Below are positions 3,642-58,856 of a stretch of DNA of 64,000 nt, piece after piece. Within the stretch, counting starts at the first letter, position 1, and each line of letters starts with the position of its first letter. The position numbers and the translations under genes were made by a program. This stretch comes from Promethearchaeota archaeon (GTDB lineage: Archaea > Asgardarchaeota > Lokiarchaeia > Sigyniarchaeales > SOKP01): assembly GCA_048937405.1 (NCBI GenBank), contig JBHLNF010000003.1:192001-256000 (forward strand), in the 5' to 3' direction. Below the pieces are notes generated by a model. That model had not been told where the DNA came from and searched no databases. It saw only the letters and a program-made list of their open reading frames with translations.

Positions 3642-6600
3642 TTATCTAATAATTTCCTCATGTAGTTTTTCGATAAATCCATCAAAATCTTCTTTAGTGA
3701 ATTTCACATTCAACAGTGGTGTAAGTAAGAAAGGAATTAATTCTTCAGTCTCATATACTGGAACTATTTTCATCAATCCTTTTTTCCTCATCTGAAATGC
3801 TGCTTGCCATTCATCTTCTACTGCTCTAGATTTGACTGAATGTTGAGAGCAAAAAAATACAAAGACTTTTGTCATTTTTAAAGTTCTTTCCATATAAGAC
3901 ACAATGTTTTCTCCACTGTCTTCTTCCCAAAAGAAAACTTTATCGACTTTTGGATATGTTTCTAATCGTTTCGCGATTTCTTTAATATTAAAATGTTTTG
4001 AATCAAGTGTTGAATAACTTAAAAACACATTTAATTCTTGAGTAAAGTAGCTTCTAATATTGTTGATAAATAATGGATAAGAAGACAATTGTTCAGAGGT
4101 TATAATACCTTGATTAATTCCTTTTTTGAAAATACTAAGGTTCATTAAATTAGTTTCAACCATGTCCTTATTTGGGAAAATCGTGGAGAATATTTGGTTC
4201 CAATTTTCATTATTAGTAATTATTGAACTACTATCGGATAAATCTATTGCATCCATAGGTTCTATTTGTGCTTTTAACTTGCTTGGCTTTATAGTTTGCA
4301 TTTTAATATCTAATGTTGATCTTATATATTCCGGAATTCCAACACCCCACCATTCAGATTCATAGTTGCTTTGCAATTTTAATTTAATAAAACTTTTTAG
4401 GTTAGATTCGAAATTTTCAATATCCTTTATAGCTATTTCTAATTGTTTTTTATGAGTAGATCTTTTGTTAATTTTTGGTTTGAGAATTAAATATATACTA
4501 ATGATACTAATAAGAGCTACAACTCCAACAATAATCAATATTATTTCAAATGCCGTTAATCCATCACCTCCATCTCCAGATGATTCCCCACTTATTTCTA
4601 GTATAAAATAGTCATAATTATCTCCCTCACCATTTTCTTTTAATTCTCCATATCTGGAACCGTAAGTTTCATTAATTAAATTATTAGGATCTATAATTAA
4701 TTCGATTACTACATCTCCCCCTGTTGAATCAATACTACTACTTGTGAATATATGGGAAAATGTCTTATTCACTCCTAAATATTCTATTGGGGTATCTGAA
4801 TTATTATATAAAATATCCCCCGTATATTCAACCCTAATTATAATTTCAATATTATTTGCTTCCCAAATACCATTATTAATGATTGTAAAATTTAATACAA
4901 ATGACTTACCTATTTCTGCAGTGCTCGCATGAAAATTTACAACTGCTAAATTGGGCATTGGATACCAGAAGCGAATCAATGGTTCAGTCCCTAATTTTAC
5001 TTCAATTCCATCAAGAAAAGTGTCTCCATCACTATCGTTGTTTTTAGGATCTGTTTGATGTTTAAATTCATCTATATTTAAAAGTTGATCATTGTCCGAA
5101 TCTGTTAAATTATCATTACCATTGAGTGGTTCCAAACCATTGAGAACTTCCCATAGATCTTCCATATTATCAAAATCGGTGTCTTTATTCCATGGATTGG
5201 TTAAATTAAGCGCTTCCCAATAATCATTTAACCCATCACCATCAGAATCTGGATTGGTAACATTAGTTCGATATGTATCACTACCTGGTATATATTCTTC
5301 ATAATTATATAACCTGTCTCCGTCAGTATCCTCATAGGTTGGATAAATTAGAGGATTTGAATCAAAAACCCGAGTAGTTCCATCAATTAAAAATGGAATA
5401 TCTCCAATTCCATCCTCTGGATTTAGATCTTCCCCCTTATACTCATCCCAATAATTACCTGCATAACCATCATCCCAAGTATTATTAACGCCACTGTCTT
5501 CAGCATCCACCTCATTATTGATAAAATTATTATAACAAATTTTATTATCTTCTAGATATAAAGATTCTTCTATAAGAATACCAAATTCTTTATTATCGGT
5601 AATCCTATTATTTTGAATAGTATTATTCTTATTAGCATTTTTTTCTTCAAAATATATTCCAAATCTCTCATTGCCTTTTATTGTATTATTACTAATTATA
5701 TTATTGTCGGAATAATTTAAAATATAAAGTCCATATCCTCCACCTAATTCAAGAAACGATAAAGGTTTATTTGTAATTTTATTAAAATTAAATGAATTGT
5801 TAAAGAAGATATTATTAGAACTATCTTGCAAATATAATCCAGCATCATTGTTGTTAAGCTCGTTAAATGAAAAATGACTATTATTAGTTGATACTAAAAC
5901 CAAACCTAATTGATTATTATTTATAATACAGTTTGAAAAATTACACTCTTTAGATAAAAACGATACTATTCCAAAAAAATAATTATCTGTTAAATTAATC
6001 CTTTCAAAGAGAGTATTACTACAATTAAAAAGAAATAATCCTAATGATACATTAAAGAGATCTAAGTCTGATATATAGGAATTTTCTGAATTAACTAAAT
6101 AAACTTGACTTGCGTTTGTAAAATCAGAAGGACCTAAATTCGATTCATTATAATAATAATAAAATCTTTTATCATTTACCGTATTTGTATCATCTATATC
6201 AAACGTATCTTCCTGGATGGCATTAGATACTAAGGTAATTCCACCCCCTTTAAATTCATTACCACTAAGCTTTGTATGATCAACAACACCTTCCTCAGGA
6301 AAAACTAAAATAGAACTTCCTATATTATTGATACCTGAATTATTTGTTATAATAGTAGTGTCAACATTATTTGATAATAATAAACCAATAAGATTATTCT
6401 TAAAGAAACATTGTGAAATAGTACTATTATCGCTTTCACAAACGATTATACCACTTCTACAATTACTAAAATTATTTTTTAAAATAGAGTTATTATGACA
6501 ATAAAAATTTAGGAGTAATCCTTCCTCACTATTAAAAGAAGCACTATTGTTAGTAATTATATTATTAGAACAATTATATAATGTAATTCCGACTGTAGCA

Positions 6601-8558
6601 TGAGTAATATTTGTATTTGATATAATTGAATTATTACAATTTATTAAAATTATTTGTCCGGCATTTTTTATTAGATTAGTATCTTTTACTTGTTCATTCC
6701 AGCGGTAGATCAGTGGTTTTGCATTTACTTCATTATCAGTAATATTATATGAAATATTATTAAAAGAAAGAGAGGGTAAATAATCCTCTTCCTTAAAATT
6801 TATGTATAATCCACAATAAGTTAGTTGATTTTCCAAAATTGTAACATTAAAAACATTAAATAAATAAATACCACTTTTTCCATTATACTTCCCCTTATTC
6901 TTGGTAAGGTTATTATAATTACTCCATTCCAGAAAAATTCCATTACCATAGTCAGCCGAAGATTCCAAATCTTGATGAGCAGTATTATTATTCATTGTAT
7001 TATTTAAGATTAAATTATATTCACTACCACCACTCAAACGTATACCATTAGAATTGAATGTGGCAATATTTTCAGAAATATTATTATTATTGCTCTCAAC
7101 AAGATGTAATCCCTCTAAAGTATTATTAATTAATGTATTTTCTAAAATAGTATTATTCTCACAATTTTCCAATAAAATACCTGTCATAGCATGGTCATAC
7201 GAGCGTAAATCTTTATTGTTACATTTCACTCTATTTTTTGTAATATTATTGTTGAAACATTCTCTAAGATGAATTCCAACTTCATTATATGAGACATTAT
7301 TCTCTATAATTTTACTGAAAGTAGTTGATCTTATTTTAATCCCAAAGAAATTACTATTATTAATTTCATTAGAATCGATTGTTATATTATAACAATAAGT
7401 TAAATCAATCCCATATTCTCTATTATTATTTAACGTATTGTTTCTAATTGTGATATTTTCACAAAAATGTAAGCTAACTCCTATCGAAGAAGAAGAAATG
7501 TTAAAATCAGAGATTAATGAATCATTACATCCTGCTAATATAATTTGTCCTGGAGGTTCTGGAGGTCCAGTTTGTGTAAAATCTTGGTTATTAAGATTGC
7601 TTTCGTTAAAATAATAATACACAGATTTCCCATTTACTGTATTACTTGTATCAATATTATAATCAAAATAAAAAAGAGAATTACCATTGAAACTTAGACC
7701 ACAATCTACCATTTGATTAGCTGCTAAGGTATTATTTGTAGATTCAAAAAAATACATTCCTCTCGTATTGTTCACAAGACGATTCTGACTAATATTGTTA
7801 TGATTACAATTTGCTTGAAATGAGATTCCTAAATTCCCATTATAAGAAAGATTATTTTCTTTTATAATATTCATTGTACAGAAATCTTTAGCCCAAATCC
7901 CTGATTGACCATTATTTTCAATAGTATTATTAAATATAATATTATTTTCACATAAAGTTTCTAATTCAAATCCACGGTGAAAATTATGATGAATTTGATT
8001 ATCTGAAAAATTGTTATAAGAACTACTACCATTTATCCTTATTCCAACTTCATTACCGAATATTTTATTTTTTTGAATTATATTGTTTTCACTTTTATTT
8101 AGCCATATACCATATTTTTGATTACTAAAAAATGTACTATTAATTATTTTACCATTAGTAACATTATTAAACATCAATCCAAAATACATTTCGCTGGATC
8201 CAAATAAGGTACAATTATTAATCACAAAATAATCCTCTGAATTTTCTATAAGGATGCAAAAACCTGAAGCTCCGGCATTAATTGTAACATTTTCAATTAA
8301 ATGAGGATCTGCTAAATCTCCGGTTCTATTCTGGATCCAATCAAGATCCGCGTCAGACCAATTATCATTTGCGATATGAATTGGAGGGCAATTTGGCCAA
8401 AAATCTGCTGTTTTTAACTTAGAATCATTATTAGTGGATTCAAAATTCTTTTCTGCTGTAAAATAGTTCCAAAAATCCCCCCTAAGAAATGAATAACTGG
8501 AGAATATAAATACAAGTATTAATAAAACTTCAATTTTTTTTTTTTTTTCTTGAATCAT
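3642..8558 (-). CDS. Single-pass membrane receptor-like protein: NosD/parallel beta-helix ectodomain, Ca-binding DxDxDG repeats, CARDB-like domain, TM, Swt1-type HEPN-like domain, C-terminal TIR
   Basis: N-terminal hydrophobic signal; many GI.L..S.NN.I..N repeats; GNYWDEY..GIGD motif; DTDGD/DSDGDG repeats; PNLAV..IIDPNNLINET; TM FEIILIIVGVVALISIISIYLIL followed by KPKINKR; C-terminal VFLSYS...SRAVEDEW...IVPV. Confidence 0.85.
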   Translation of the reverse strand: MIQEKKKKIEVLLILVFIFSSYSFLRGDFWNYFTAEKNFESTNNDSKLKTADFWPNCPPIHIANDNWSDADLDWIQNRTGDLADPHLIENVTINAGASGFCILIENSEDYFVINNCTLFGSSEMYFGLMFNNVTNGKIINSTFFSNQKYGIWLNKSENNIIQKNKIFGNEVGIRINGSSSYNNFSDNQIHHNFHRGFELETLCENNIIFNNTIENNGQSGIWAKDFCTMNIIKENNLSYNGNLGISFQANCNHNNISQNRLVNNTRGMYFFESTNNTLAANQMVDCGLSFNGNSLFYFDYNIDTSNTVNGKSVYYYFNESNLNNQDFTQTGPPEPPGQIILAGCNDSLISDFNISSSSIGVSLHFCENITIRNNTLNNNREYGIDLTYCYNITIDSNEINNSNFFGIKIRSTTFSKIIENNVSYNEVGIHLRECFNNNITKNRVKCNNKDLRSYDHAMTGILLENCENNTILENTLINNTLEGLHLVESNNNNISENIATFNSNGIRLSGGSEYNLILNNTMNNNTAHQDLESSADYGNGIFLEWSNYNNLTKNKGKYNGKSGIYLFNVFNVTILENQLTYCGLYINFKEEDYLPSLSFNNISYNITDNEVNAKPLIYRWNEQVKDTNLIKNAGQIILINCNNSIISNTNITHATVGITLYNCSNNIITNNSASFNSEEGLLLNFYCHNNSILKNNFSNCRSGIIVCESDNSTISQCFFKNNLIGLLLSNNVDTTIITNNSGINNIGSSILVFPEEGVVDHTKLSGNEFKGGGITLVSNAIQEDTFDIDDTNTVNDKRFYYYYNESNLGPSDFTNASQVYLVNSENSYISDLDLFNVSLGLFLFNCSNTLFERINLTDNYFFGIVSFLSKECNFSNCIINNNQLGLVLVSTNNSHFSFNELNNNDAGLYLQDSSNNIFFNNSFNFNKITNKPLSFLELGGGYGLYILNYSDNNIISNNTIKGNERFGIYFEEKNANKNNTIQNNRITDNKEFGILIEESLYLEDNKICYNNFINNEVDAEDSGVNNTWDDGYAGNYWDEYKGEDLNPEDGIGDIPFLIDGTTRVFDSNPLIYPTYEDTDGDRLYNYEEYIPGSDTYRTNVTNPDSDGDGLNDYWEALNLTNPWNKDTDFDNMEDLWEVLNGLEPLNGNDNLTDSDNDQLLNIDEFKHQTDPKNNDSDGDTFLDGIEVKLGTEPLIRFWYPMPNLAVVNFHASTAEIGKSFVLNFTIINNGIWEANNIEIIIRVEYTGDILYNNSDTPIEYLGVNKTFSHIFTSSSIDSTGGDVVIELIIDPNNLINETYGSRYGELKENGEGDNYDYFILEISGESSGDGGDGLTAFEIILIIVGVVALISIISIYLILKPKINKRSTHKKQLEIAIKDIENFESNLKSFIKLKLQSNYESEWWGVGIPEYIRSTLDIKMQTIKPSKLKAQIEPMDAIDLSDSSSIITNNENWNQIFSTIFPNKDMVETNLMNLSIFKKGINQGIITSEQLSSYPLFINNIRSYFTQELNVFLSYSTLDSKHFNIKEIAKRLETYPKVDKVFFWEEDSGENIVSYMERTLKMTKVFVFFCSQHSVKSRAVEDEWQAAFQMRKKGLMKIVPVYETEELIPFLLTPLLNVKFTKEDFDGFIEKLHEEIIR

Positions 8559-8892
8559 AGTGATCTGGATTTACTAAATATATATAATATGGTAATATTA
8601 ACGATTCACCTTATTATATTTTTTTAATTTTTATAGGGTTTATATTTAAACAAGCTAGAGCTAAATTGAATTTTTTTAAACAAAAAAATATAATAGAAGC
8701 ATAAAAATTAATTTATAGAAGTGAGAAGAATTCTTACATGATGTTAAACTTCCACTATTGGAAGAAGTATTATGAATAGAGAAAAATCTCCAAAAATTTT
8801 TAGTATCAAATGTTAAAATAGGTTTTGAGTAAGAATTAATCAATTAATTTGATTGATAAAACATTCTTTAAACATAATTAGGTTTTTAGATT

Positions 8893-50599: not shown

Positions 50600-51505
50600 A
50601 TGATTTTTATGTTTCTACAGGGATTTAGTGTTGAAGAAATTTCTTATCTTTTGTTTCCTGCGATAATTTTTTTTGTTTTGACGATTGGTTTTTATTTCTT
50701 CATCAAAAGAAGGGGAAAGGGGATAAAATCTAAAGAATTCAAAATTATCATCATGTTCTTTAGTTCGGTTATGATTATGGTCTATATGACAGTAATTGGA
50801 TTATTATGGTTTGCTGATAATGTGACAGTTCAATTAGTTGTCCAAATTATTGGAATTGGTTCTATAACAGCAGTTGCATTTATTATTATTAGAATTATTT
50901 ACAACACGGATACTAAATTGGACAATTTAGTGAATAATGTAATCAAATCAAGCTCAGAAGTAGCCATCAATGTAGCAAATATTGCAGCAGAATTAGCAGC
51001 AAATGCTAGTGAGGTAAATGCGGCATCCGAAGAGATTGCATCCTCTACAGCTGAAACAACAAGCCTTACAGAAGGAATTATGAGAGCTTCAAGTGAAATA
51101 AATAATGTTAATGAACTAATTACAAACATAGCTGATCAAACAAATTTATTGGCGTTAAATGCCAGTATTGAAGCAGGTAGAGCTGGTGAACATGGGAGAG
51201 GGTTTGCGGTCGTAGCAGATGAAGTTCGAAAACTTGCAGAAGAATCAAAAAGAGCGGTGAGTAATACGGGCAGTAAGATTACAGATATAATAAAAAATAT
51301 ACAACTCTCTTTTAATAATATGGAAGGAATTAGTTCTGCTGCCGAACAGCAAAGTGCTTCTATGGAAGAGATTACTGCAACTGCAAACAAATTAGGTACA
51401 CTGGCAGAAGGTTTGAAGGATTCTTTGAAAGCAGCAGAAGAATCACCAAAAAAAAAAAAGGCGACAAATATATTATCAAAAATTAAATCATCTAAAGAAT
51501 ATTAA
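50600..51505 (+). CDS. Methyl-accepting chemotaxis-like protein 3
   Basis: Same MCP signature, with a third distinct 3-TM N-terminus and a different C-terminal tail. Confidence 0.9.
50936..51420 (+). repeat. Third near-identical copy of the MCP signalling-domain DNA
   Basis: Matches the segments starting at 45804 and 47375 for about 485 bp; similarity ends at the domain boundary. Confidence 0.9.
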
Positions 51506-51587: not shown

Positions 51588-52007
51588 TCATTTTTTATTT
51601 AGTCTTATTATAAAAGTATAACCTTTATTTCTTTCCTCAGATTCTACAATTTTTTGCCTACCGTATAAATCTACAATTTCTTTTGAGAGATATAACCCTA
51701 ATCCATATCTTTCAATATCTACCCCCAAATCCAATCTATATCTCTCAATTTTTCCAAACTTTTCAAATAATTTTTCTTTTTCTTTCTTAGTTATTCCCAC
51801 TCCAGTATCTTTTACCCAGATATCAATATTTTCAGGATTTTCGATAAGATTAACTAAAATTTCACCTCCTTTTGGAGTGTTCTTCATTGTATTTGAAATA
51901 ATATTTGAAATCATCTGTCTGAAACTAATTTTATCTATCTCTATATAGATTTCACTTGTCATATCAAATTTCAATTTTAACTTACAATTAGCTGCTAAGT
52001 AGTTCAT
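51588..52007 (-). pseudogene. Degenerate histidine-kinase HATPase_c fragment
   Basis: N box QMISNIISNTMKNTP, G1 VKDTGVGI, F box LFEKF, and an altered G2 RYGLGL. No HisKA or sensor domain. Confidence 0.7.
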
Positions 52008-52185: not shown

Positions 52186-52851
52186 ATGACAAATTTTAAA
52201 TCTGTTGTTAATAAACTTCAAAAACACTACTCTGATGCTGAAGATGTAGTAATCGTTAGTAATAAAGGAAAAATCCTTTACTCTACGAATAAATGGGATG
52301 TTAAGCATGATATTTTAAGTGTTTTAAATAGCTGGAAAACTGGTAATGCGCAATTTGTTAACTTATGTGGTATAAAATATTCTATTCTTCAAATGGAACC
52401 CGAACGCTTTATTGGTACTAATCGCCATAAAAAAGGACATCTAATTGGAGCTACTACTCCAGATGGAAAAATTTATATGATAGCTCATATTAAACCTAAA
52501 GCAAAAGGATGGTTTCATATGGCATATCCTGCTGTTGCCAGAGCTGCTGCAATGTTAAAAAAAGGTTCAGAATCAAAATTTATTGACACTGAAGTTGAAA
52601 AATCTAGTAGAAATAAAATTGAGCCAATTTATGAAAGTTCAACAAGTCAGATGGCAGTAAATCAAGTTTTTCCCGCGCGATCCATTTTAGATCCATATCT
52701 TAAAGCGGAAATTGAAGGTTTTTTACAATGGATTAACAATCCCCAAGGATTAGCAGGATATATTACCAATACATTGCTACAAAATGACCATTTTAGGATT
52801 TCTAAACTTGCTGAGATATATAATAGGTTATATTCAATATGTTATGAATAA
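52186..52851 (+). CDS. Loki-type profilin domain with a ~95-aa C-terminal extension
   Basis: VVIVSNKGKILYSTNKWD and GIKYSILQMEPERFIGTNRHKKGHLI resemble Lokiarchaeal profilin segments as I recall them (IIGKDGQII.QT.NW; GIKY.IV....ER.IGTN...KGH). Confidence 0.75.
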   Translation: MTNFKSVVNKLQKHYSDAEDVVIVSNKGKILYSTNKWDVKHDILSVLNSWKTGNAQFVNLCGIKYSILQMEPERFIGTNRHKKGHLIGATTPDGKIYMIAHIKPKAKGWFHMAYPAVARAAAMLKKGSESKFIDTEVEKSSRNKIEPIYESSTSQMAVNQVFPARSILDPYLKAEIEGFLQWINNPQGLAGYITNTLLQNDHFRISKLAEIYNRLYSICYE

Positions 52852-53156: not shown

Positions 53157-55340
53157 TTGTTTGAGGTAATTCTAATGAGTTATGTAATATTAGATGAAGA
53201 AAAATATGATATAAAAGGAGGAAAACTAGATCTAAATTCTAAAAACATTGAAAATATAACTGAAATTAGAGGTTTAAAGACTTTTTCTGATTTACAGGTA
53301 TTATATCTTAATAAAAACAAAATAAAAGAGATTAATGGCTTAAAGCATTTAAATAAGTTGAAAGTGTTGGCCCTAAGTGATAATTTGATTACTGAAATAA
53401 AAGGTTTAGAATCAAATATTGATCTAGAATGGTTGAATTTAAGAAGTAATCAAATTACTGAGCTTAGAAACCTAGCTTCATTAAGTAACTTAAAAATTTT
53501 AAACTTACGTGATAATAGAATTACAGAGATTAAAGGATTAGAATCTTTAACTAATCTACAAGAATTAATTTTAACAGATAATCAAATTGCTGAAATTAGA
53601 GAACTACGCTATTTGTCAGATTTACAAGAGATAGATTTAAAAAACAATTTAATTACTGAAATTAAAGGGTTGGAAAATCTTACTAAATTACAGCAGATTG
53701 ATATGACGAATAATCAAATTTTTGAAATAAAAGGATTGGAAAATCTTACAAACTTGCAAGAATTAGTTCTTGCAGATAATAAAATTTCAGAAATTAAAGG
53801 GTTAGAAAATCTTACACGATTACGAGTGCTAAACCTCAGCAATAATCAAATTACAGATGTTAGAGGGTTAGAATCTTTAACTAATTTAAAATTTTTGAAT
53901 CTTAAAGGTAATCCAATTTCATATAGATTGCTTAGAGAATTAGATGGTTTTGATCAAAAAGGAAATGCTAAAAAACCTCAAAAATTTGTAGAATATTGCC
54001 AATATAGATTGGAAGAGGAGAGGAAAAAAGTAGAAAGGATTTGGAACAATACCATTCAATACATTAAAAAGTCGAGTTCAATATATAGTGAAATAACATT
54101 AGATAAAATTAGTTCAAAAACAGGAATTCAATCAAAAAATTTAGAAAGTCTTATTGAGAATATGATTTATAATAAAGAGATAGATGCCCAAATCAGAGGA
54201 AATTTGCTAATTTTTAAAAAACAAGTAATAAAACCAAAACTAGAGCCTAAATTAGAAGAAATGCCGAAGTTATCTCAATTTTTAGATGAATCTATAAAAA
54301 AAAATGTTAAAGTTTTAAGGGGAGGAGATTGGAAAATTGAAGCAAACCAGAGTGTTTTTAATTATAAAGTAAAAATAAAAAACTTATCTAAGTATATTAT
54401 TTCAGACATTCAAGTAATCTTTGGAGATATACCTCCAGGATTAGAATTAAGAATGGATAAATTAATCGAATTTTCAAAATTAAATCCTAATAGTGAGGTT
54501 GCCCCAACATATAAATTATATGCTACTGACAATTGTGTGGGAAGTGAAATAAAAGGTATCGTAAATTACAATGATCATTTTGGCCAAATGCACACAGTTC
54601 AAATAGAGCCATTTGAAATTTGCTATGTATGTAATTTACTTGTACCAAGGAGAGTATCTAGAGAGGAGTTTGAGAATACAATACAAAACATGGAAGGAAG
54701 GATTATGCATATAGATAGTAATATGGATCCATATAAAATTGAGGCTCTTATTAAAAGAAAAATGGAAGAATGTAATTTTGCTTTGCTTAAAGAAATCACA
54801 GAAGCCCAACAAAATGGTTTTAGGAAAATCGAAGGATTAGCTCAAGGATTATATGATAAGCAAGATGTAGCTATATCAATTGCGATGAAAAAACTCGAGG
54901 AAGGTTCAGACATAGAAATAAAGACTTTAAGTGATAAGGTGGAAAAAACAACTGATCTTTTAAAAGATATTAGTATTAAAATTGAAGACATAAAAAGTGA
55001 TACTCAAAAAGTTCAAGATATTATTTATTATTTGGATGAATCTAAAATCAGAGAAACTTTAAGTATTGTAATTGAAAATCCTAAAGATTTAAATAGAGTT
55101 ATCTATAAAGTTATTAAAAATCCAAATTGGAGTGATGAAGAAAAAGATAAATGGGCTAAAATTGTTATGGAAACTCTCAATTATTACAAAATGTTTAAAA
55201 CTCCGTTGTGGTTAAAATTCCTCAAAGGAATTACTAAAATCACATTAGGCGAACCAGCATCAAGAGCCATTACGGCTGGAGTGGAAGAATTAGTAGATTG
55301 GTTAAATTTAAAAATTGCTAAACGGCATATTAATAAATAA
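53157..55340 (+). CDS. Cytoplasmic SDS22-like leucine-rich repeat protein with a PCI-like winged helix and a C-terminal beta-sandwich/platform-like region
   Basis: About 10 22-residue LRRs (L..L.L..N.ITEIKGLE.L), then IYSEITLDKISSKTGI...LIENMIYNKEIDAQI. No signal peptide or TM. Start is probably the ATG at 53175. Confidence 0.85.
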   Translation: MFEVILMSYVILDEEKYDIKGGKLDLNSKNIENITEIRGLKTFSDLQVLYLNKNKIKEINGLKHLNKLKVLALSDNLITEIKGLESNIDLEWLNLRSNQITELRNLASLSNLKILNLRDNRITEIKGLESLTNLQELILTDNQIAEIRELRYLSDLQEIDLKNNLITEIKGLENLTKLQQIDMTNNQIFEIKGLENLTNLQELVLADNKISEIKGLENLTRLRVLNLSNNQITDVRGLESLTNLKFLNLKGNPISYRLLRELDGFDQKGNAKKPQKFVEYCQYRLEEERKKVERIWNNTIQYIKKSSSIYSEITLDKISSKTGIQSKNLESLIENMIYNKEIDAQIRGNLLIFKKQVIKPKLEPKLEEMPKLSQFLDESIKKNVKVLRGGDWKIEANQSVFNYKVKIKNLSKYIISDIQVIFGDIPPGLELRMDKLIEFSKLNPNSEVAPTYKLYATDNCVGSEIKGIVNYNDHFGQMHTVQIEPFEICYVCNLLVPRRVSREEFENTIQNMEGRIMHIDSNMDPYKIEALIKRKMEECNFALLKEITEAQQNGFRKIEGLAQGLYDKQDVAISIAMKKLEEGSDIEIKTLSDKVEKTTDLLKDISIKIEDIKSDTQKVQDIIYYLDESKIRETLSIVIENPKDLNRVIYKVIKNPNWSDEEKDKWAKIVMETLNYYKMFKTPLWLKFLKGITKITLGEPASRAITAGVEELVDWLNLKIAKRHINK

Positions 55341-55456
55341 TTTCCTCAACTTTTTTCTTATGCAATATTTAAGAATTAAGGAAAAAAAATAAAAAATTTC
55401 TTAGAGAATTTTTCCAGATGATTATTTAATTCTCTAATTTTAAATCTAAAAAATTA

Positions 55457-58400
55457 TTATCTTAAGATTTCTTCATAGAGATTCTGGATAAATCCTTCGA
55501 AATCATCTTTAGTAAATTTAACATTTAACATTTGCCATAGTAATCGAGGTATATGGTCTTCATCTTCATAAACAGGGATAATTTTCATCAGCCCTTTTTT
55601 AACCATTTGATATGCTGATTGCCATTCACCTTTTACTGCATCAGATTTTATGGAATTTTCTGAGCAAAATAATACGAAAACATTAGTTTTTTTAAGAGTC
55701 TCTTCCATAAATTCTACGATATTTTGCTTGCTATCTACTTCCCAGAATAAGACCTGATCTATTTCAGGATATAATTCTAGTCGTCTAACAATTCTAGAAA
55801 CTTGAAAGTAATCTGTGTCTAATGTTGAATAACTTATGAAAACATTATGTTTTGCCATAATTTCTTCTTTAGGTATAAGTACTGCCGCTTCTAATGCCAG
55901 AGCTTTAGAGCTTGAAAAGTATTCACCTTGGATTTCTTTATTTTTAATCATATCTTGAATTACATTCTCAATTATAGTTTCATCTATTATACCGCTCTTT
56001 TCACTTATATCTACGAGTTGTAAACGAGTAAATTTCGCCCCTAAGGTTAAGATTGTCTGCTTAATTCGATTAATTGTTTCTACTTGTGACTTTTTACAAA
56101 TTAATATTTTTTCTTCAGCTGCATTCACTAAGTCTATTAATTCAAAAGTCTGAGCTTCGTTTTGAATTTCTGTTAAATTTTCTATAGCTTTATCTAATTC
56201 ATTCGCCTTAATTAGAGAATCTACAAAAGACATTCTTTCTTGAAGTTCTTCTTCAGTTTTAGTTTTCTTTTCTTTAACTTTTTGTTCATCTATTTTAATC
56301 TGATAATATGCGATTGTAGTTTTAATTTGAGTTTTATTTGATTTTATTTTTTCTTTATATTCAATGAGATTATAATTTTTAACAATTTCTTTAGCTTCTT
56401 TAATTTGTTTTTGAGCTTGGTTTAAGGTCTCTATGGCATCACTATATTCTTGTTTCTGAGCAAACTTATTAGCCGTATCAATGAGGGATGTAGCTTTATT
56501 ATAATATTTATCAACTTTTGCCTCTTGTTTAATCATTTCTTTAGTTTTTTTTTCAATGGGTGCTTCTGCGGATGGTTTCACTTTAGGAGGCTTCCTTTTC
56601 TTTGAAACAACAAGAAGACTTACTAATATTAATCCTAAAATACCCACACTAACTACAATGATAATTAATACGAGGTAATTTTTACCGTCTCCAGGAGTAC
56701 CTTTACTCAAGGTAAGAGGATCTACGGCTAATTCGAGTTCAAAATATTTATCTGAATATCCGTTAGCAGAAATGGTCATATTTAACAAAATGGGCTCTTC
56801 TCCTGGTTCTACGGTTATCGGCTCAAAAGTTGTAAAATAGGTTCCCCCTCCAAGGTTTTGAACATTACTAGACACATCACTGCCATTCCACCACATCTGA
56901 AATGTTGCATCAGAAATTCCATGATTAGTCTTATTATAGACAGAATAAGTAAGATTGAATTCGTCTAAAGAGAAATTAGAATCTGTCACTTCTATAAATA
57001 GATTCCTTTCTGGAGCCCATTGACATGTATAGAAGTATGGCCAATTCAAAACATTCGGCAGAAATCCAGTTAAGGCAACGTGATGTGCAAAAATCACTTT
57101 TAAACAATATGCCCATACATGTGCAGAATCATTAATTAAAAGTTCTTGAATTCTGTCGTACATTACTTCTCTTGCAGGCCCGTCAGGGGTAATGAGCGCT
57201 TGTTCCATTAATAGCTGTACGTTATCATTGATATTCTCAGGGTCTCTACCAGCATAACCTGCCTCTAAATATCCATCATATTGAGCAATATTAGAAGCTT
57301 CTGATCTATTGGTAAACAATGGATTGATAAAGTCGCTAGCATCATTATAGTCAGGTCCCCAGCCAACAAGTAATAGCTCTAGATGATTTCTTGTATACCC
57401 GTTCCACTCGAACATTTTAGAGGTAAGAGTAATTAAATCACTCCCTGCATCCGTTACTCGAATTCCGATTTTCTTTAGATCTCTGATTAACATTGTATAT
57501 ACATCTTCTCGAAGTTCGGAGCCGATGTTATAAGAATAGTTAAAGGTTCTAAATGGAGAAGTCTCTGTTGCTGCAACCCATTCAGCGTCGTCATCTAGAT
57601 TAAAGCCTTCCCCATATCCCATTGATTGCATTATTATTCTTGCCTTTGTTAAGTTATATATGGGAACAGGGAATGTCCAGTTGGAGTACTTAAAACCCAT
57701 TGGAATAGGAGATTTCATTCTGATGGCATAACCTAATTTGGTAGTATTAATCAGATAATCATAATTAAATGCATAAGAAATTGCTTCTCTCCATGTCCTA
57801 TTTATCAGCATATTGTTCATTACTAAGTATTGAAAAGTTCCACCAGTATCTCCAGTATTTATCACTGCTATGTCAGGATCATCTGTAAACATATCCACAA
57901 ATTCTGCTACCGGGTCTTTTAAAAAGTGGATGTCCCCTGTTAATAATGCCGCATTTCTAGCATCCGGATCTTCAATTTCTGAAAAAACTAAATTATCAAT
58001 GCCCCCCCAATATCCTCTCCAATAATTATCATAAGCATGCAAGGTTACTTCGACATCCTCCTCATATGAATCATACACAAAAGGACCAGTTCCCACAACA
58101 TCCCCATCAAGTTCAACAATACCGCCTGTTTCATTATAGTATGTGTCGGTCAATATGGATGAGGCCGTATAGCATAACAAGTCCTCGAAAGGCGCATAGA
58201 CACCATTTAACTCAAACCTTACAGTATCACTATCTACTTTAACAACATCTTTTATAATTTGAGTACCATTAGGGTATACATATAATGATCTTACCAGGGG
58301 AATGCCGCCTGTATTAAGACCTGTGAAATTATACAACCAAGCTTGTCTATCAAAACTAAATACAACATCATCTGCGTCAAATGTGGAACCATCGTGGAAA

Positions 58401-58756
58401 GTGACACCAGTTCGGAGATTAACAGTATAATTTGTGTGACTTACGTCCCAGGTACCCATTTCTGCGGCGAGTAGGGGCATGATCGGCAGAGTGGGATCGC
58501 TTAAAGTATAAGTAAATAATGTTTCCACAACCTGAAAGAGTACATCCATTGATGACTCATCCCAGCAATTTTGGGGATCAATTGTATTGAGTAAGTTCGG
58601 TACACCATAAACAAAGGGAATGCTCGCAGAATCTGCACTAAATAATAAACTTGAATCAATAGCATTTTTGCGATAATCTCTAAAATTAATGAAACCATTT
58701 GATAAAGAAAGTAATATTGTTATAATTAAAAAAATTGTTTTATACTTTTTTTTCAT
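55457..58756 (-). CDS. Single-pass membrane receptor-like protein: family-5 (peptide/nickel) solute-binding ectodomain, TM, helical/TPR-like region, PCI-like domain, C-terminal TIR
   Basis: Signal MKKKYKTIFLIITILL; LRTGVTFHDGSTFDADDVVFSF, VGTGPF, REAISYAFNY, GWGPDYND; TM YLVLIIIVVSVGILGLILVSLLVV followed by KKRK; FTRLQLVDISEKSG...IQDMIKNKEIQGEY; VFISYS...SDAVKGEW...IIPV. Confidence 0.85.
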   Translation of the reverse strand: MKKKYKTIFLIITILLSLSNGFINFRDYRKNAIDSSLLFSADSASIPFVYGVPNLLNTIDPQNCWDESSMDVLFQVVETLFTYTLSDPTLPIMPLLAAEMGTWDVSHTNYTVNLRTGVTFHDGSTFDADDVVFSFDRQAWLYNFTGLNTGGIPLVRSLYVYPNGTQIIKDVVKVDSDTVRFELNGVYAPFEDLLCYTASSILTDTYYNETGGIVELDGDVVGTGPFVYDSYEEDVEVTLHAYDNYWRGYWGGIDNLVFSEIEDPDARNAALLTGDIHFLKDPVAEFVDMFTDDPDIAVINTGDTGGTFQYLVMNNMLINRTWREAISYAFNYDYLINTTKLGYAIRMKSPIPMGFKYSNWTFPVPIYNLTKARIIMQSMGYGEGFNLDDDAEWVAATETSPFRTFNYSYNIGSELREDVYTMLIRDLKKIGIRVTDAGSDLITLTSKMFEWNGYTRNHLELLLVGWGPDYNDASDFINPLFTNRSEASNIAQYDGYLEAGYAGRDPENINDNVQLLMEQALITPDGPAREVMYDRIQELLINDSAHVWAYCLKVIFAHHVALTGFLPNVLNWPYFYTCQWAPERNLFIEVTDSNFSLDEFNLTYSVYNKTNHGISDATFQMWWNGSDVSSNVQNLGGGTYFTTFEPITVEPGEEPILLNMTISANGYSDKYFELELAVDPLTLSKGTPGDGKNYLVLIIIVVSVGILGLILVSLLVVSKKRKPPKVKPSAEAPIEKKTKEMIKQEAKVDKYYNKATSLIDTANKFAQKQEYSDAIETLNQAQKQIKEAKEIVKNYNLIEYKEKIKSNKTQIKTTIAYYQIKIDEQKVKEKKTKTEEELQERMSFVDSLIKANELDKAIENLTEIQNEAQTFELIDLVNAAEEKILICKKSQVETINRIKQTILTLGAKFTRLQLVDISEKSGIIDETIIENVIQDMIKNKEIQGEYFSSSKALALEAAVLIPKEEIMAKHNVFISYSTLDTDYFQVSRIVRRLELYPEIDQVLFWEVDSKQNIVEFMEETLKKTNVFVLFCSENSIKSDAVKGEWQSAYQMVKKGLMKIIPVYEDEDHIPRLLWQMLNVKFTKDDFEGFIQNLYEEILR

Positions 58757-58856
58757 AAATTTGACCCTATTTTTTGTTATGATTATTTTAGATAGAAATG
58801 TATAAAAACATTTTTGTCTAAATTTCAAAACTAGAAAGTTGACCTGAAAAAACCAA

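Follow-up and report, generated by a model that had tools for sequence, protein, structure and literature searches.

The stretch of DNA analysed here, called the window below, consists of 64,000 nucleotides on contig C13 of the 4.47-Mb genome of a Promethearchaeota archaeon, a Loki-type Asgard (G000). It is AT-rich, with a GC content of about 0.26-0.34. Two genes in it, here called gene A and gene B, are convergent and have a gap of 116 bp between them. A scan of this gap for terminators found none. Gene A encodes a cytosolic protein with leucine-rich repeats (LRR) as its input, then a PCI-like winged helix (wH), then an appendage-like output, and finally a helical tail. Gene B encodes a single-pass type-I receptor, which consists of an anchor, an SBP_bac_5 domain, one transmembrane helix (TM), a helical stalk, a PCI-like wH and a TIR domain. 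Both proteins are members of one modular family, in which an input is followed by a PCI-like wH and then by an output. Coordinates are given in Table 1.

A first-pass annotation of this DNA had noticed similar winged-helix segments in both genes. These segments are indeed there, at the right coordinates. BLASTP of the two wH regions yields 33% identity over 79 amino acids (aa), with an E value of 0.002 for this single comparison. When the alignments of the A family and the B family are compared with hhalign, the match has a probability of 95.3% and an E value of 2.3e-8 over 54 columns. The AF2 models of both segments have a common topology: a long helix, a strand, two helices and a beta-hairpin.

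The segments had also been called PCI-type. For gene A this follows from a Pfam PCI (PF01399) match at aa 292-346 (nucleotides 54030-54194), which scores 31.9 bits where the cut-off is 22. A profile of the gene A family, searched against all PDB sequences, finds almost only PCI subunits. The first of these is eIF3c with an E value of 1.8e-5, after which come CSN3/4, Rpn3/5, eIF3e and CSN2. For gene B, the single sequence scores 16.6 bits against Pfam PCI, which is below the threshold, and does so only with the segment cut out. The gene B family profile matches CSN3, however, with an E value of 0.002, and this alignment spans the wH and the two helices before it. It should be noted that, of 14 control prokaryote genomes, 4 also have matches to the Pfam PCI model, which detects some generic wH domains there. 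The segments of A and B are confirmed as homologous, and both are PCI-type winged helices.

In structural terms, the best match of the gene A wH (long helix included, AF2 model, VIA aligner) is with UFL1/DDRGK1 (8b9x_B), at Z 10.5 and an rmsd of 1.6 over 65 aa. A proteasome lid subunit follows at Z 9.5, and CSN3 at Z 9.4 over 88 aa. UFL1 and DDRGK1 belong to the UFM1 E3 ligase and contain arrays of wH domains. The likeness to them is limited to the wH, and the context of a UFM1 system is absent here.

PCI wH domains pack side by side in the proteasome lid, the COP9 signalosome (CSN) and eIF3. The wH domains of A and B are like those of the PCI subunits of these complexes, both by profile and by modelled fold, and the two helices that precede the gene B wH align to CSN3 as well. 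What comes before the wH in gene A is different: LRRs and then one long helix, so not a solenoid of helical repeats. The TPR-like helices that had been reported ahead of the gene B wH are present as helical hairpins in the AF2 model, but as TPRs they are less certain, since the matches of TPR Pfam models on the stalk stay below threshold. What comes after the wH differs too. Eukaryotic PCI proteins do not have TIR or appendage outputs following the wH, unlike the family of A and B, and neither MPN partners nor a complex of several subunits is known here.

Table 1 Features of the gene pair and of related loci. Positions without a prefix are those of the window.
Feature	Position	Strand	Details
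Gene A	53157..55340	+	727-aa open reading frame (ORF) from TTG; 721-aa database form (P0003, 100% identical) from ATG 53175
Gene A leucine-rich repeats	53244..53936	+	aa about 30-260; internalin/SDS22-like 22-residue repeats
Gene A long helix and PCI-like wH	53976..54215	+	aa about 274-353
Gene A segment of the first-pass annotation	54081-54194	+	IYSEITL...DAQI; aa 309-346
Gene A adaptin/COPI-appendage-like module	54297..54983	+	aa about 381-609; beta-sandwich and alpha/beta platform
Gene A C-terminal helical tail	54984..55337	+	aa about 610-727; family-specific; pLDDT about 45-57
Gene B	55457..58828	-	1123-aa ORF from TTG; 1099-aa database form (P0092, 100% identical) from ATG 58756
Gene B extracellular SBP_bac_5 solute-binding domain	57302..58483	-	aa 116-509; Pfam 3.8e-63
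Gene B transmembrane helix	56603..56680	-	aa about 717-742; hydropathy windows up to 3.16
Gene B cytoplasmic helical stalk/hairpins	56027..56596	-	aa about 745-934; AF2 pLDDT >90
Gene B PCI-like wH	55892..56026	-	aa about 935-979
Gene B segment of the first-pass annotation	55919-56035	-	KFTRLQL...QGEY; aa 932-970
Gene B TIR domain	55460..55849	-	aa about 994-1123; Pfam TIR_2 1.6e-14, 54.9 bits (cut-off 28)
Fused LRR-PCI-TIR protein	L035:4891-6339 = G000 C7	-	483 aa
Fused LRR-PCI-like wH-TIR protein	L033:6454-7539 = G000 C13:262454-263539	+	362 aa
Two tandem PCI-like wH-TIR_2 proteins	L034:4768-5766, 5788-6828 = G000 C19	-	about 340 aa
ORF directly 5' of gene A	52186-52851	+	221 aa

A hydropathy scan of gene A finds no hydrophobic TM window, in line with a soluble protein. 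Its LRR part is recognised by Pfam LRR_4 (2.9e-48) and LRR_8 (3.9e-25), and its matches to the NCBIfam internalin models remain under their cut-offs. The first-pass annotation had described the protein as a bare LRR-PCI adaptor. This description does not hold, because more than half of the protein consists of a large module of its own, which is appendage-like, and a tail.

This appendage-like module is also the best-conserved part of the family, with 26 invariant columns in an alignment of 74 sequences. In the AF2 model its block-mean pLDDT values are mostly 84-95, with a single block at 77. The bipartite fold of adaptin ears, with an Ig-like beta-sandwich first and an alpha/beta platform after it, can be found in this model. 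The top Foldseek matches are the appendages of COPI, beta2-adaptin and alpha-adaptin, at E values of 8e-10 to 1e-7; they include 9qpq_H, 1e42_A and 2vj0_A (8e-10 to 2e-8). VIA aligns the module to the alpha-adaptin ear 1w80_A at Z 14.6 over 210 aa, to the beta2 ear 3h1z_A at Z 13.4, to gamma-COP 1r4x_A at Z 11.8 and to BBS9 at Z 11.2. Conversely, the Pfam models for adaptin and COP appendages do not match gene A at E <= 1-10, and a weak match to PTHB1_GAE occurs only in a paralogue (P0069). Going by the model, the likeness to adaptin and COPI appendages is one of fold only.

The tail is harder to place. It is poorly modelled, and a profile of it found nothing in the PDB. A hhalign comparison of this poorly modelled region with the Vps28-C region encoded by the genome itself came to a probability of 0.1%. 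Elsewhere in the genome (L032:4892-5443, minus strand, on C10) a gene for a small coiled-coil protein has a C-terminus that matches the hidden Markov model (HMM) of the gene A family tail, with an E value of 2e-18. At a distance of about 0.6 kb, this gene has an IS605 OrfB/Cas12f-like TnpB gene as a neighbour.

Asgard proteins that combine an adaptin appendage region with HTH/PCI, TPR and Vps28-C/SB parts, in an ESCRT context, have been described by Makarova et al. 2024 (PMC10936438). Gene A resembles these in having a repeat input, an HTH/PCI-type wH and an adaptin-appendage-like region. It differs in its tail, in which no similarity to Vps28-C or the steadiness box was detected, and in that no ESCRT genes adjoin the pair. 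The main text of that paper mentions neither TIR nor LRR (0 occurrences). It was the only paper that a literature search for the PCI domain in Asgard archaea returned, and what it covers is the combination of appendage and HTH/PCI. In the library that was searched, no paper was found on PCI-TIR links, appendage-TIR links or TIR-receptor families in these archaea.

Contig C16 of the genome encodes a 790-aa protein (L036:4840-7209, plus strand) with three wH repeats that are DDRGK/UFL1-like and PCI-like. Next to these it has an Ig-like part, to which the appendage HMM matches at 2e-8, and a VPS28 C-terminal domain at 26.3 bits (cut-off 24.5). It is an ESCRT-I-like Asgard mosaic.

Gene B had been called a receptor, and the order of ectodomain, TM, wH and TIR agrees with that. 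A hydrophobic anchor lies N-terminal to the SBP_bac_5 domain, and a beta-rich stretch runs from this domain to the TM. Matches of the ectodomain to NCBIfam models of the DppA, SapA and GsiB kind are under the cut-offs. Directly after the TM comes KKRKPPK, in line with the positive-inside rule.

The cytoplasmic part of gene B is modelled by AF2 as helical hairpins, wH and TIR, with a pLDDT of 91.7. The stalk starts with about 100 aa that form a three-helix bundle. This juxtamembrane bundle (56300-56596, aa about 765-855) is conserved only among the closest receptor orthologues. It has matches to MIT domains, including that of archaeal Vps4, at Z about 11. Such scores are within the background for helical bundles, and an MIT-like nature is not claimed.

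VIA aligns the TIR domain to Cat1, TIR-1, RPS4, MyD88 and SARM1 at Z 14-14.7. There is a glutamate at the catalytic position, in the motif AVKGEW, which is invariant across an alignment of 65 sequences (E324) and which aligns with the glutamate of the Cat1 motif WDELEQ. The domain keeps the NADase glutamate, and its output would be enzymatic. In this it is like the TIR NADase effectors of prokaryotes, such as Cat1, Thoeris ThsB and the TIR-APAZ protein of SPARTA: the fold is of the TIR_2 type, the glutamate is in place, and Cat1 is the best match in both sequence and structure. Membrane receptors that combine a wH with an extracellular sensor are foreign to those systems, however. PADLOC models matched none of gene A, gene B and a fused LRR-PCI-TIR paralogue at E <= 0.01.

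Gene B can also be compared to the Toll-like and IL-1 receptors of animals, which have homotypic-domain adaptors like MyD88 and MAL. These also have a ligand-binding ectodomain, a single TM and a cytoplasmic TIR domain, and the idea of a soluble partner that is recruited via a shared domain is the same. But the ectodomain of gene B is SBP_bac_5 and not LRR or Ig, its TIR, which is closest to Cat1, belongs to the prokaryotic TIR_2 type and has a catalytic glutamate, and the domain that is shared here is a PCI-like wH and not a TIR or death domain. There is no indication here that the architectures of gene B and the Toll-like receptors share a common descent.

In this analysis, only Asgard (Promethearchaeota) records yielded members of the family to which A and B belong. 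The inputs in this family are LRR, TPR, WD40, a GTPase, or an ectodomain with a TM; its outputs are TIR or the appendage. The module of appendage plus tail occurs in about 90 Promethearchaeota proteins, where it is joined to N-termini with LRR, TPR, WD40, small GTPase, Clp_N, NosD, LVIVD or SBP5-TM. Longer versions also exist; these are membrane receptors whose ectodomain is NosD or SBP_bac_5 and whose cytoplasmic output is the appendage, for example P0326. The wH-TIR tail is found in more than 90 receptors, and here the ectodomains are SBP5, NosD beta-helix, Peripla_BP_6, FG-GAP or PKD.

In about 70-80% of the members sampled from the family, the wH stands directly ahead of the output. It precedes the appendage module in 70 of 89, and sits at the joint in 66 of 92 TIR-type members, 87 of which have a TM ahead of the TIR domain. 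A search for the wH in P0326 and P0069 gave no match. A profile search of the full library, with 1.84 billion representatives, found 174 clusters with a wH of the A/B type. When 136 wH-bearing cluster representatives were scanned, 83 matched Pfam PCI, 21 LRR, 20 TIR_2 and 8 TPR.

All four combinations of an LRR or SBP5 input with a TIR or appendage output exist. Gene A and gene B are two of them, the fused LRR-PCI-TIR proteins L035 and L033 are the third, and P0326 (SBP5-TM-appendage) is the fourth. P0069 is a receptor that even has TIR, appendage and tail in a single chain. Over 344 aa, the LRR and wH of L035 share 38% identity with gene A (E 2e-43), and its TIR shares 60% identity with that of gene B (E 3e-55). 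Judged by these alignments, L035 behaves as a 'Rosetta stone' that links gene A to gene B. Gene A is the appendage-output sibling of the LRR-PCI-TIR proteins. The first-pass annotation had proposed a 'split LRR/TIR' complex. Given that fused LRR-PCI-TIR proteins are encoded in the same genome, this is the wrong frame.

The L033 gene lies about 13 kb beyond the A/B pair, or about 6.5 kb past the end of the window. Just 5' of it is a gene for a 346-aa protein with a weak GTPase domain of the Arf/Ras type. In the two tandem proteins at L034, no N-terminal domain was recognised. In total the genome has 15 TIR-type ORFs. The window itself holds a second large TIR receptor (3645-8570, minus strand). 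This protein of 1642 aa contains repeats of NosD/beta-helix modules and ends in a TIR_2 domain, which the HMM of the gene B-type TIR recognises (E about 1e-64); the wH HMM has no match in the protein.

The gene that carries an appendage module of the gene A type is present as a single copy in the genome. Orthologues, 73-76% identical, exist in only 4 of the 53 species of one GTDB genus. In all four (G000, G081, G068 and G086) a convergent wH-TIR receptor lies directly downstream. The same convergent neighbour is found in GCA_030610905.1 and on two metagenome contigs (L038 and L039), and the adjacency thus holds in seven of the eight orthologue contexts. The flanks of the pair change each time: there is a ferredoxin gene in G000, and elsewhere there are genes for His_Phos_1, MFS, PHO4, DapB or HIT. 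The ectodomains of the partner receptors vary as well (SBP5, SBP5+NosD, NosD), and a single clade with support 100/98 contains the cytoplasmic modules of all of them. The partner receptors are not monophyletic within that clade, which means that strict co-divergence of the pair cannot be claimed.

The pair appears to have been inherited and moved together, so A and B most likely act in one pathway. A functional link is probable. The fuller reading has about an even chance of being right. It holds that A and B are members of the modular family that form a small accessory pair, that the pair moved together and works in one pathway, and that the wH serves as the assembly domain.

It is also conceivable, but rather unlikely, that there is no direct link. 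A and B would then be independent paralogues of a shuffling family that clusters in variable regions, not yet separated, and each wH would serve its own protein, as a homo-oligomer or a hinge. Several observations favour this and weigh against an accessory pair. The pair-bearing orthologues are limited to one genus and patchy, which is shallow conservation. One context (L037) has UvrB downstream instead of a TIR receptor. No TIR gene was found within 1.5 kb at about 16 loci of paralogues with 29-50% identity. The two genes are convergent, hence not co-transcribed. TIR receptors are numerous in the genome, with another one in the window, and in G081 a second TIR receptor is present on the other side of the gene A orthologue too, suggesting that family genes cluster.

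In addition, P0098, P0099 and the copy that G000 itself has on C28 are receptors of the same clade that lack an LRR partner, and an A-type wH HMM, run on the whole genome, does not recover the wH of gene B at E <= 1e-3. The wH of gene A is closer to that of the fused LRR-PCI-TIR proteins (42%) than to that of gene B (33%). The resemblance between A and B is therefore family-wide and not specific to the pair, which also counts against the favoured reading.

What argues against independence is that the pair is kept in nearly all contexts with both flanks different each time. By a rough estimate, with about 15 TIR genes in a 4.5-Mb genome, the probability of immediate adjacency by chance alone is below about 1%. 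Fusions such as P0069 are evidence, moreover, that a single chain can hold a working TIR and appendage. Of the synteny across Lokiarchaeia that the first-pass annotation had suggested looking for, the convergent adjacency with changing flanks is real; its reach is one genus, and it does not extend to paralogues.

In the proposed mechanism, the wH would be the assembly or joint domain of the whole family, much like in PCI and UFL1/DDRGK1 complexes. Clustering of the receptor, driven by ligand, would align its wH-TIR units into active TIR assemblies. The LRR-wH-appendage protein would join or regulate this receptor assembly, most plausibly by heterotypic wH contacts, with its appendage acting as a platform for further partners. 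Of this account, the identities of the domains, the homology of the wH, the combinatorics of the family, the conserved adjacency and the conserved catalytic glutamate are observed. What we infer is oligomerisation via the wH, contact between A and B, and enzymatic output of the TIR domain. Docking of A on B from wH to wH is the leading candidate, because of the analogy with wH packing in PCI and UFL1/DDRGK1 complexes and because of the gene linkage. A prediction of the complex of the gene B stalk-wH-TIR with the gene A wH-appendage, based on alignments, scored 0.09 (mark 0.32) and counts neither way.

A related concept from the Aravind lab is that of effector-associated, or homotypic adaptor, domains. 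These have death-like or other folds and occur in bacterial conflict systems, in co-directional operons with NTPases. As in those systems, two neighbouring genes here have one and the same small domain, which is proposed to couple them. The difference is that the domain here is a PCI-like wH, and that the pair is convergent.

Taken strictly, the docking idea of the first-pass annotation goes further. It would make gene A a soluble LRR adaptor with PCI-PCI docking on the TIR receptor as its sole role, which results in a two-chain LRR plus TIR receptor. The homologous wH domains, the conserved adjacency and the side-by-side assembly of PCI domains in the lid, CSN and eIF3 all agree with this. 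It is nevertheless unlikely: gene A has a conserved output of its own in the form of appendage and tail, one-chain LRR-PCI-TIR proteins are already available in the same genome, and the wH similarity is that of a family and not of a pair.

Alternatively, A and B might be linked by something other than the wH. The LRR or appendage of gene A would then bind the receptor stalk, the TIR domain or a peptide motif, for purposes of sorting, down-regulation or inhibition. Appendages in eukaryotes, like the AP2 ears, bind linear peptide motifs, so the fold is that of a known hub for such motifs. The genome also has its wH-Ig-Vps28-C protein, of which the Ig part matches the appendage HMM, and conservation of the gene B three-helix bundle is restricted to the closest orthologues. 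Asgard appendage proteins have furthermore been tied to ESCRT-type sorting (PMC10936438). Even so, this alternative is very improbable. No motif or interface was identified, no likeness to Vps28-C or the steadiness box was detected in the tail of gene A, and the MIT-like match of the bundle does not rise above the helical background.

A bolder version of the assembly idea is that the wH is a dedicated domain for homotypic and heterotypic assembly, which couples Toll-like receptors to adaptin-ear adaptors and is a prokaryotic forerunner of both PCI scaffolds and receptor-adaptor sorting. This is distinctly unlikely. The proposed receptor complex would operate in the closest archaeal relatives of eukaryotes. 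LRR, PCI-type wH, adaptin ear and TIR are all domains that typify signalling, trafficking and immunity in eukaryotes, and here they are wired combinatorially in an Asgard archaeon. If the wH is an assembly joint, it becomes testable how PCI-type scaffolds and appendage hubs were used ahead of the eukaryotes, whether the TIR receptors of archaea relay signals from the cell's exterior, and whether a shared domain couples receptor and adaptor. For that last question, a TIR receptor next to an appendage adaptor provides a testable case.

The surroundings of the pair contain some further genes. The 221-aa ORF directly 5' of gene A has no match in a Pfam search, and its place beside gene A orthologues is not kept. 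Upstream of that are a 139-aa ORF (51588-52007, minus strand) with only a HATPase_c domain, which is possibly a fragment of a histidine kinase, and a gene (50600-51505, plus strand) whose 301-aa product is a membrane protein that has an MCP signalling domain.

Finally, the L037 contig has a GPP34 (GOLPH3-like) gene (L037:4441-5112, minus strand) about 0.5 kb upstream of its gene A orthologue, with a 43-aa ORF in between. The top Foldseek match of the gene A appendage is a COPI leaf bound to GOLPH3, which is possibly a coincidence.

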